IMG/VR virus record: IMGVR_UViG_2740892449_000004
Strand: one strand, 5' to 3'
DNA: 64,000 bases
Source of the DNA: a virus
Lineage: Duplodnaviria > Heunggongvirae > Uroviricota > Caudoviricetes
Both the position numbers and the translations under genes were made by a program. This document shows positions 29,917 through 30,710 of the stretch, in pieces. Under the pieces are notes generated by a model. The model had not been told where the DNA came from. It did no database searches and saw only the letters and a list, made by a program, of their open reading frames with translations. Numbering within the stretch: position 1 is the first letter of the stretch; every line of letters begins with the position of its first letter.

Positions 29917-30710
29917 GCCGCATTCACCGCAACGGAAAGAGCATTCTTGGTGGACCTGTAGATTGGGATATGAACCCGTTACAGGAGAATGCTCTTACCT
30001 GTTACGTGCTCCGTTTCGTGGAGCTAACGGCGGGTGATCGGGCCGCACCAGGCTGGACTTATTTCAGCGTTATGCTCATGCCAGAGAATCAAACTGTGAT
30101 GGTCGGTGCTGAACTCCGACACAGGGTTGTAGCAAGCCCCGCAAAGCGCGCACTACTGTAGTTGCGGCACATCAGCCTGTGCATTCACCACAATGTTGAG
30201 AACACTGGTTGTCACGCTGCAACGCAACATTTATTCGTAGATTGGGATATGACCCCGTTACGCCAGTGTTCTCAACGTTGTAGTGCCGGTTACGGTTCCG
30301 GCCAGGCCTCTTCCTCAACGGGGTGTTCTCCATACGGACTACCGTTTATTGGTCGTTCCTGCGGTTTATGTTGTGAAGCCAGATGCTTATCTTCTGGTTG
30401 CTTCAAAGAGCTGCACTTCATCACAACGGTAAGAGCACTCGATGCATTTAAGCCAAGCCCCATAAGGGAGAATGCCCTTACCTGTTGTGTTGTGATGACC
30501 GGTGCTGATCTCCGGCTTGCGGTTATTTCAGACTCTCACGGGCGTTTAATTGCCCCGCCGAACAGCTCTTTTCCGCAATAGCTGCAATGTCTTTCGCGCA
30601 TCAGCCTGCGCATTCATCACAACGGTAAGGGTACTTCGTAGGGATTCGAACCCTCTGCCAAGCTCGGCGATCTCCGACGTCGCAAAATACCCTTACCTGT
30701 TGTGCTGGTG
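29917..30710. repeat. Array of four 80-105 nt structured repeat units with conserved terminal inverted repeat
   Basis: Units at about 29917-30007, 30181-30285, 30416-30497, 30610-30710, each bounded by CA(T/C)CACAACGG...CTTACCTGTT(A/G)(C/T)GTG and holding 10-20 bp stems; another copy of the 3' arm at 31128-31142. Confidence 0.5.

Follow-up and report, generated by a model that had tools for sequence, protein, structure and literature searches.

The 64,000-nucleotide (nt) viral sequence IMGVR_UViG_2740892449_000004 of the IMG/VR database (here called the window) carries on its minus strand a pair of tRNA genes, tRNA-Asn and tRNA-Thr, which is followed without a spacer by an array of structured repeats at positions 29,917 to 30,710. 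Here we describe this array, which consists of four tandem modules, each comprised of a long hairpin and a cloverleaf-shaped core (Table 1). Sequence comparison revealed that the 931 bases around the array are 100% identical to vB_EcoM-813R1 and 99.8% identical to RCS47, and that P1, P7, D6, and SJ46 match the same region piecewise. This near identity, together with the piecewise matches within the P1 family, shows the window to be a P1-like phage-plasmid. P1 and P7 are annotated with the C1-controlled ban promoter (operator Op72/Oban), which drives the tRNAs and ban, upstream of the homologous stretch, and the order on a single strand is dicF-like region, tRNA-Asn, tRNA-Thr, array interval, downstream genes, trnI, and ban. 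The minus strand of the window has the same layout, in keeping with an initial annotation, made from the sequence, which had the interval read together with the tRNAs. The C1 operator is the predicted start of a transcription unit covering a transfer-messenger RNA (tmRNA)-like module, the tRNAs, and the array. The interval is the distal part of a noncoding RNA island in the C1-repressed ban operon and would be read from the minus strand with tRNA-Asn and tRNA-Thr, which score 74.5 and 72.9 bits with the Rfam tRNA model.

The initial annotation had placed four units with common inverted-repeat arms in the interval, and all four are there. The exact 12-mer arms ACAACAGGTAAG (three copies) and CTTACCGTTGTG (two copies) occur within the 64 kb in the array locus only, and units 1 and 2 have arm versions with two mismatches or covarying bases. 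A further copy of an arm, which had been noted at 31128-31142, proved to belong, as the 5' arm, to a fifth hairpin (unit 5). This hairpin has the arms of the other units and lies upstream of tRNA-Asn, immediately behind the tmRNA-like module. Folding, which had been proposed as a check, gave z scores of -4.1 to -5.8 for the five hairpins, and none of the 200 shuffled sequences made for each was equally stable. The minus-strand fold is more stable than the plus-strand fold in all five, by 2 to 17 kcal/mol. The base of the hairpin is conserved (ACAACAGGUAAG paired with CUUACCGUUGU), and the top is variable.

Further inspection of the units revealed parts of tRNAs. Unit 4 is a long hairpin that begins straight after the CCA of tRNA-Thr; its interior holds a D-arm-like GCGA-CGUCGGAGA-UCGC and a T-arm, AGGG-UUCGAAU-CCCU (the T-arm-like GGGATTCGAACCC of the initial annotation), without an anticodon arm, and we regard it as a tRNA-elbow mimic. 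Its homologues in phage BUCT554 and at locus L033 keep the D- and T-arms and have a stem altered by compensatory substitutions, with three compensated stem positions across the three versions. Unit 3 has the canonical arms. Unit 2 is the longest hairpin, with a stem of approximately 30 bp that includes an inverted repeat (I1) with 23-nt arms, 91% complementary; its arms covary relative to the other units, GUUGAG/CUCAAC replacing GGUAAG/CUUACC, and it bears a degenerate T-arm-like GGGGUCAUAUCCC. The T-arm-like GGGUUCAUAUCCC of unit 1 is degenerate too, and units 1 and 2 do share the motif GTAGATTGGGATATGA(A/C)CCCGTTAC that had been reported for two of the units (family D6 in our repeat search). 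A T-arm with a 5-bp stem and a UUCRANY loop on the acceptor stem, combined with a GG D-arm, was found in unit 4 only, and units 3 and 5 have no T-arm. No unit was called a tRNA by ARAGORN or by the Rfam tRNA model (RF00005), even at E values up to 10; only the three real tRNAs were called, which bears out the earlier opinion that the units are not canonical tRNAs. The predicted stems offer the approximately two turns of double-stranded RNA expected of an RNase III site (median of 19 bp across the family). The small hairpin just upstream of unit 1, GCUCC-ACGAAAC-GGAGC, recurs before units at many other loci, where it has compensated GCCAC/GUGGC stems.

The units had also been considered a possible small repeat family. 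Their stems are indeed conserved across related phages by compensatory change, but the hairpin is only half of the repeat. The repeat is bipartite, with the 3' arm of each hairpin leading, on the minus strand, into a second conserved structured domain, the core. The order of its elements is GUUGUG-RUG-AAU, the hairpin GCRCA-GGCUGA-UGYGC, a variable stretch, the hairpin (G)CCGG-AGAUCAGCA-CCGG(C), and CAYCACAAC. GUUGUGRUG pairs with CAYCACAAC as a closing helix, and the result is a four-way junction with tRNA-like connectivity: closing helix, AAU linker, first hairpin, variable middle, and last hairpin, this one abutting the closing helix on its 3' strand. Core A has the closing helix GUUGUGAUGA/UCAUCACAAC and the hairpins GCGCA-GGCUGA-UGCGC and GCCGG-AGAUCAGCA-CCGGU on either side of its variable middle. 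In core C the two hairpins are compensated variants (GCACA/UGUGC and UCGG/CCGA). In core D, the closing helix is GUUGCGGUG/CACCGCAGC, and a U-run comes after the 3' hairpin, CCGGG-AGGCA-CCCGG, of which phage D6 has a compensatory CCUGG/CCAGG variant. The U-run is present in this variant only, and no terminator was called after core D by a simple terminator scan. In the core B remnant, after unit 3, the closing helix (GUUGUG..AAG/CUUCACAAC) and 3' hairpin (CCAGA-AGAUAAGCA-UCUGG) persist, and the 5' hairpin is missing; it forms a direct repeat (D5) with core A and gives no thermodynamic signal (z = -0.5).

Table 1. Coordinates of the array modules and neighboring features in the window
Feature	Position	Strand	Evidence or remark
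tRNA-Met/Ile(CAU)	28630-28705	minus	ARAGORN, Met(CAU); P1 homologue annotated as trnI (tRNA-Ile2, lysidine modified)
Core D, STnc100/PasD type	29807-29934	minus	Rfam STnc100, 37.8 bits, E = 5.8e-6; R1, 31.4 bits, E = 1.5e-6
P1 upl ORF stretch	29832-30161	plus	Antisense to the RNA array
Unit 1	29925-30008	minus	-37.4 kcal/mol, z = -4.1
Small hairpin GCUCC-ACGAAAC-GGAGC	30008-30024	minus	Just upstream of unit 1
Core C	30091-30199 (R1 match, 30091-30195)	minus	R1, 74.6 bits, E = 6.3e-18
P1 plp ORF stretch	30162-30581	plus	Antisense to the RNA array
Unit 2	30186-30285	minus	-57.1 kcal/mol, z = -5.1
Core B remnant	30370-30433	minus	R1, marginal, 12.3 bits, E = 0.15
Unit 3	30422-30489	minus	-43.9 kcal/mol, z = -5.8; plus strand, -33.7
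Core A	30487-30627 (R1 match, 30487-30624)	minus	Covariance model R1, 97.1 bits, E = 7.7e-24
Unit 4	30618-30704	minus	-51.3 kcal/mol, z = -4.6; plus strand, -44.1
tRNA-Thr(UGU)	30706-30781	minus	ARAGORN; Rfam tRNA
tRNA-Asn(GUU)	30784-30859	minus	ARAGORN; Rfam tRNA
Unit 5	~31062-31145	minus	-51.9 kcal/mol, z = -5.3; plus strand, -34.7
tmRNA-like messenger module	31146-31320	minus	Tag frame, 31263-31231
C1 operator ATTGCTCTAATAAATTT of the ban promoter (Op72/Oban in P1)	31528-31544	minus	Sequence and P1/P7 annotation of the homologous site
dmt	31535-33553	minus	

The pairing of the cores was examined with an alignment of 44 cores with unrelated middles, from which the covariance model R1 was also built. 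In this alignment 94% of cells were paired and eight pairs changed on both sides. None of 500 shuffles reached these values, and slid partners were 25 to 51% paired. The first hairpin occurred as GCGCA/UGCGC (77 cases) or GCACA/UGUGC (8 cases) and never in a mixed combination, even though the search pattern permitted mismatched ones. The loops of the two core hairpins are complementary to each other (GCUGA with UCAGC), and a first loop of GACUGA goes with a second loop of UCAGU, with G:U intermediates, such that the pair passes from G:C to G:U to A:U. Covariation of this kind would be expected for two loops in contact. The four-way junction was recovered when cores A and C were folded as single sequences.

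A strong hairpin lies directly 5' of the core motif at 148 of the 182 loci. These hairpins comprise 116 distinct sequences with 82 different 5' arms, a median basal stem of 19 bp, and very diverse interiors. Across the family the stems are kept by compensatory change, GGUAAG/CUUACC against GUUGAG/CUCAAC being one example. The signal is strand specific: the sense orientation folds better in 69 of 75 unique related hairpins, and the basal stems of the 116 unique hairpins contain 218 G:U pairs in the sense orientation versus 86 in the antisense orientation. On the sense strand, 9 of 78 units have canonical T-arms (a stem of at least 4 bp and a UUCRANN loop), which mostly abut the 3' arm; the antisense strand has none, and shuffles give 0.26. 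The tRNA-like motifs reported initially recur in the wider family, sense only, in addition to the D- and T-arms of unit 4. The strand asymmetry indicates that RNA-level selection acts on the minus (sense) strand.

The initial annotation had suggested a comparison of the stems among P1-like phages. Relatives do show compensatory change, but the family is not confined to P1-like phages. A query made of the unit 4 3' arm and the first core hairpin matched 133 phage records, including P1-like, lambdoid/Shiga toxin (Stx), and P22-like phages (BUCT554), Ackermannviridae (T751 and relatives), siphoviruses (swi2), N4-like podoviruses, and T7-like phages; the family also occurs in T1-like phages and in prophages of Gamma- and Betaproteobacteria. 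The exact 25-nt core pattern was present in at least 120 viral contigs and in 53 species-representative genomes, mostly of Enterobacterales, the carriers outside this group including Janthinobacterium, Massilia, Undibacterium, Aeromonas, and Marinobacterium. Core A is present in 845 of 5,426 complete Escherichia coli genomes and is unannotated in all of them; Stx and lambdoid phages carry the core A segment at 98% identity. Elsewhere the modules are found in long noncoding islands beside tRNA genes or, in lambdoid phages, within the leftward early operon leader. A promoter of their own precedes some cores, and a short single-stranded, seed-like linker and an intrinsic terminator come after them, as in a stand-alone small RNA; a DicF-like terminator module forms the tail of the BUCT554 core. 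The hairpins and cores A and C are not described in Rfam 15 or in RefSeq annotation. Rfam scans at permissive settings, run on the window and on four core-bearing phage loci, gave no family over the hairpins or cores A and C, and the literature searched, with incomplete coverage (phage tmRNA-like RNAs, tRNA-like phage noncoding RNAs, and the P1 ban operon), held no description of these elements. The modules belong to a very widespread RNA family, left without annotation in Rfam 15 and RefSeq, which is conserved at the nucleotide level across Gamma- and Betaproteobacteria and in at least six kinds of phages, both temperate and virulent.

Two of these phages carry further tRNA-like elements. The virulent Klebsiella phage T751 (Ackermannviridae; locus L009, 1000-4000) has approximately 3 kb without annotated genes, which holds a tmRNA-like tag module, a hairpin plus core, and a copy of the small RNA STnc100 at 48.8 bits, above the Rfam threshold. 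The same stretch contains an anticodon-less tRNA-like element, GGCGAAG...CUUCGCCA, that is missed by tRNA finders. In Escherichia phage 24-32N (locus L011, 2210-2280), a tRNA-like element that ARAGORN does not call lies just after the core. Its acceptor stem is UCCGGUG/CGCCGGA and its T-arm UCUGG-UUCGAGU-CCAGA; it has a 3' ACCA, lacks an anticodon arm, and is a candidate stand-alone tRNA-like domain.

The closest known relatives of the cores are STnc100 (RF02076) and PasD. PasD is a prophage small RNA of enteropathogenic E. coli that is Hfq dependent and was validated by Northern blotting and Hfq RIL-seq (PMC8550237); its structure is related to that of STnc100 (bioRxiv 10.64898/2026.05.13.724894). 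The array and STnc100/PasD have in common the closing helix (U)GGUG/CACC(A), the AAU linker, the last hairpin CCGGG-AGGCA-CCCGG abutting the closing helix, and a phage or prophage habitat. The whole STnc100 architecture (GGUG/CACC, AAU, first hairpin, variable region, and terminal hairpin) is present here, and with R1 a single structure accommodates cores A, C, and D. The STnc100 gathering threshold is 47 bits, which the T751 copy passes, whereas core D scores 37.8 and PasD2 scores 41.4. Cores A and C gave no STnc100 match at E values up to 10. Unlike STnc100/PasD, they have different invariant, mutually complementary loops (GGCUGA and AGAUCAGCA), and the domains are arrayed here behind tRNAs, each with a long hairpin in front of it. 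With R1, PasD2 reaches no more than 13 bits, and PasA is unrelated; cores A and C are therefore a sister family and not PasA to PasD themselves. Identity with PasA or PasC had been suspected, as these lie near TerB genes, like the array in P1. The core model misses the PasA locus, the published PasA fragment is unrelated, and this identity was rejected; a permissive Rfam scan of the PasA/PasD2 locus of strain E2348/69 gave only subthreshold matches. The family gives the STnc100/PasD small RNAs a structural and evolutionary setting, as tRNA-shaped domains born in phage tRNA islands.

Like DicF-type small RNAs, the array lies in the untranslated leader of a repressor-controlled early operon, the same leader that contains the dicF-like region of P1, but neither the units nor the cores have sequence similarity to DicF. 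Y RNA (YrlA, RF02553), which has a similar-looking architecture, was rejected: its only match, of 25.6 bits where the threshold is 69, coincided with the two real tRNAs, and no rsr gene was seen nearby. A hammerhead ribozyme, prompted by the CUGAUG in the first hairpin loop, had no Rfam support.

We hold it to be slightly better than an even chance that the four hairpin-cloverleaf modules of the ban-operon island are processed to regulatory small RNAs. Because the tRNAs, hairpins, and cloverleaves abut without spacers, we propose that the transcript is cut at these structures, that small RNAs are released, and that these act in the manner of STnc100/PasD. The polycistronic transcript would be cut by RNase P and the 3' tRNA-processing enzymes; RNase III would cut the stems of approximately 19 bp, and RNase E the single-stranded GAAU linker. 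Discrete, nuclease-resistant small RNAs would be set free, and the cloverleaves may then act as their STnc100/PasD relatives do, as Hfq-associated regulators using their variable segments. Several observations weigh against this proposal. The thermodynamic signal of the cores themselves is weak (z = -2.2, -1.0, and -3.1), cores A and C lack the seed-plus-terminator tail of the stand-alone copies, and both core D and PasD2 stay below the STnc100 gathering score. The arms of a hybrid unit in SJ46 no longer pair, and phage Ro157c2YLVW has lost the T-arm-like hairpin of unit 1 by a clean deletion, which shows single units to be dispensable. As to the covariation counts, the exact-match pattern used for collecting loci fixes part of the first hairpin, and the sample holds many close relatives, so that cell counts overstate the number of independent events.

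Comparison of the P1-like phages revealed how such losses arise. In P1, unit 4 is fused to the flank of unit 3, so that core A and unit 3 are absent. In P7 and Ro157c2YLVW, unit 3 directly follows tRNA-Thr. D6 and P7 have a real tRNA-Ser followed by a different unit 1, and in SJ46 units 2 and 1 are fused at their shared motif. The junctions of these deletions and fusions (P1, P7, D6, SJ46, and Ro157c2YLVW) lie in shared arms or shared motifs, and the repeated arms therefore act as recombination substrates, identical arms accounting for the two to four copies found in P1-like phages. Ro157c2YLVW (locus L006) also has an extra tRNA-Tyr between tRNA-Asn and tRNA-Thr and an insertion of approximately 190 bp with a 42-amino-acid (aa) open reading frame (ORF) between the unit 3 flank and unit 2 (L006 2994-3122 and 3439-3525). 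These gains mark the array as a hot spot for gain and loss.

Real tRNAs are found in and around the modules of other genomes. In Massilia sp. strain TS11 (locus L133, approximately 4480-4560), a complete tRNA, its CCA not encoded, occupies the hairpin position, and its leader pairs with its trailer; locus L126 has a nearly complete tRNA in this position. Real tRNAs flank or abut cores in Aeromonas (L178), in Janthinobacterium (L155-L160), and at locus L017. In the window, tRNA-like traits are the GG D-arm of unit 4, its UUCGAAU T-arm by an acceptor-like stem, and the direct succession of units to tRNA CCA ends; unlike tRNAs, the units have no anticodon arm or free CCA end, and their acceptor helix is approximately 19 bp long. 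In view of the unit 4 arms, the Massilia tRNA, and the near-tRNA of L126, the hairpins are best described as tRNAs, ex-tRNAs, or replacements of tRNAs locked in an extended acceptor helix. This suggests a route for the gain, loss, and conversion of phage tRNA genes.

These same observations lend themselves to another account, in which the units would be tRNA pseudogenes in decay, along with duplicated flanks of tRNA genes, that arose by unequal crossing-over and were kept only as harmless. A precedent exists in the 178-bp repeats that follow E. coli tyrT, which are tandem, lie after a tRNA gene, contain a tRNA-like piece, and vary in copy number by unequal recombination. Remnants of T- and D-arms, the tRNA in the Massilia unit position, and the tRNA-Ser inside the D6 and P7 arrays all fit such an origin, as do a copy number that varies by recombination and units that are lost or broken. 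The tyrT repeats, unlike the array, are not conserved structured modules common to unrelated phages, and decay would erase the conservation seen here: carriers that range from Enterobacterales to Oxalobacteraceae, as well as virulent phages of compact genome, have an identical 25-nt core motif, and compensatory changes preserve the stems of 116 different units, in which G:U pairs strongly favor the sense strand. We consider this account unlikely.

Processing to regulators also has to be weighed against a purely structural role, for which the chances seem a little poorer still. Here the modules would shield the untranslated stretch of the ban operon from Rho-dependent termination and exonucleases, and RNase III cuts would uncouple the tRNAs from the downstream mRNA, without any action in trans. 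The long untranslated region (1.8 kb) between the repressor-controlled promoter and ban, basal stems with a median of 19 bp that suit RNase III, and the position of the lambdoid copies in the leader of the leftward early operon are all in line with this idea. It would not, however, need invariant loops, loop-loop complementarity, or a cloverleaf topology, nor does it account for stand-alone copies with their own promoter and terminator.

The tmRNA-like module upstream of unit 5 raises a different possibility. Its tag frame, GCA AAC GAU GAU CUG AUG AUG GUA GCG GCC UAA, translates to ANDDLMMVAA*; the stop codon lies in a hairpin loop, two pseudoknots follow downstream, and a candidate 5' pseudoknot was seen by eye. 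At least 11 distinct 10-codon tags were found elsewhere (phages T751, swi2, and 24-32N and prophages), with synonymous third-position changes; examples are ANDEQFLAVA, ANEEMYLAVA, ANDDVVLMAA, and ANDNTFLAVA, and the end is always a small hydrophobic residue plus alanine. The two downstream pseudoknots covary, with 29 double-sided cells against 9.6 in shuffles, and none of 500 shuffles was as high. Likenesses to tmRNA are the 10-codon tag AN[DE][DEN]..[AV]A, the resume context AUAAAU|GCA as in betaproteobacterial tmRNA, and the flanking pseudoknots, and the Rfam models tmRNA_permuted and beta_tmRNA match the region weakly, below gathering. A tRNA-like domain for the module with G3:U70, a T-arm, and a 3' CCA was sought by eye, with ARAGORN -m, and with the Rfam tmRNA models, and none was found. 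Similarly, a search for acceptor/CCA candidates in the units, the cores, and the nearby anticodon-less elements of T751 and 24-32N gave none with G3:U70 plus CCA. In swi2 and at locus L037 a promoter lies immediately upstream of the first pseudoknot, and any tRNA-like partner must therefore be downstream.

On this basis the island could be a phage-borne, rearranged trans-translation device, or one hijacking trans-translation, made up of the tag module and a downstream tRNA-shaped partner, a role that would fall to a cloverleaf core or to a tRNA-like hairpin without an anticodon. The long hairpins would then be excised or bridging intervening segments, as in two-piece tmRNAs, and the array after tRNA-Thr would be spare or variant copies of the tRNA-like partner. 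We regard this as a long shot, on a par with the purely structural role. If the tag frame is functional, many enterobacterial phages, including P1, tamper with ribosome rescue. Between the ban promoter and the tag module lies an intrinsic terminator, GCCCAUCUUCGGGUGGGC plus a U-run (31332-31351, minus strand), which would end a short RNA begun at the C1-controlled ban promoter; the approximately 130 nt upstream of it are the "dicF-like region" of the P1 annotation. Given the place of this terminator between the ban promoter and the tRNAs, expression of the tRNAs and ban would require read-through or a second promoter.

The cloverleaves and the tRNA-like hairpins might alternatively be tRNA mimics, as decoys or inhibitors of host tRNA-targeting defenses or tRNA-handling enzymes, with the hypervariable anticodon-arm position reflecting an arms race. 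The core does have a tRNA-like topology (acceptor-like helix, 2 nt, first hairpin, variable region, and last hairpin abutting the 3' strand), and the modules are constantly associated with phage tRNA genes and are carried by many virulent phages. The loop sizes, however, are unlike those of real T- and D-loops, and no defense or antidefense gene is consistently seen beside the modules, which leaves mimicry slightly less probable again.

A role at the level of DNA, as miniature inverted-repeat transposable elements (MITEs) or recombinase sites, is very improbable. Terminal inverted repeats around a variable interior, and a 137-bp segment that is 98% identical between P1-like and Stx phages, would suit mobile elements, but no target-site duplications flank the units, the copies in the 64-kb window are confined to the array locus, and the strand-specific asymmetries in G:U pairs, T-arms, and fold energy are unexpected for double-stranded DNA sites. 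The copy distribution and the strand asymmetry led us to reject a MITE.

A protein-coding role for the plus strand of the interval, with Upl and Plp as the products annotated in P1, RCS47, and JL22 (the last two also naming a "putative lipoprotein Plp"), is scarcely tenable: the window does have open frames of 109 and 139 aa, but these have TTG/GTG starts and no Pfam match, the plp frame runs antisense into tRNA-Thr, their lengths and C termini differ in every recombinant and the frame switches in Ro157c2YLVW, they are absent from the P7 and D6 annotations, and the nucleotide pattern is that of paired RNA arms. Protein coding was rejected on these grounds, in agreement with the initial annotation, which had taken the ORFs across the interval for artifacts over noncoding structured RNA. 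P1 upl and plp are probably annotation artifacts; P1 is a classic model phage, and two of its annotated genes appear to be artifacts that lie over structured RNA.

The initial annotation erred in placing upl at 29541-29777 on the minus strand. This is not P1 upl, as P1 upl and plp are plus-strand ORFs across the array; it is a different small gene beside a SPFH/Band 7 lipoprotein gene, and the pair replaces tciABC of P1. The minus-strand region 28733-29777 encodes a 78-aa hydrophobic protein and the 275-aa SPFH/Band 7 lipoprotein, and P1, P7, D6, and SJ46 have tciA, tciB, and tciC (TerB-like) at this place. The same 78-aa/SPFH cassette is present in Ro157c2YLVW, and the swap junction lies directly past core D.

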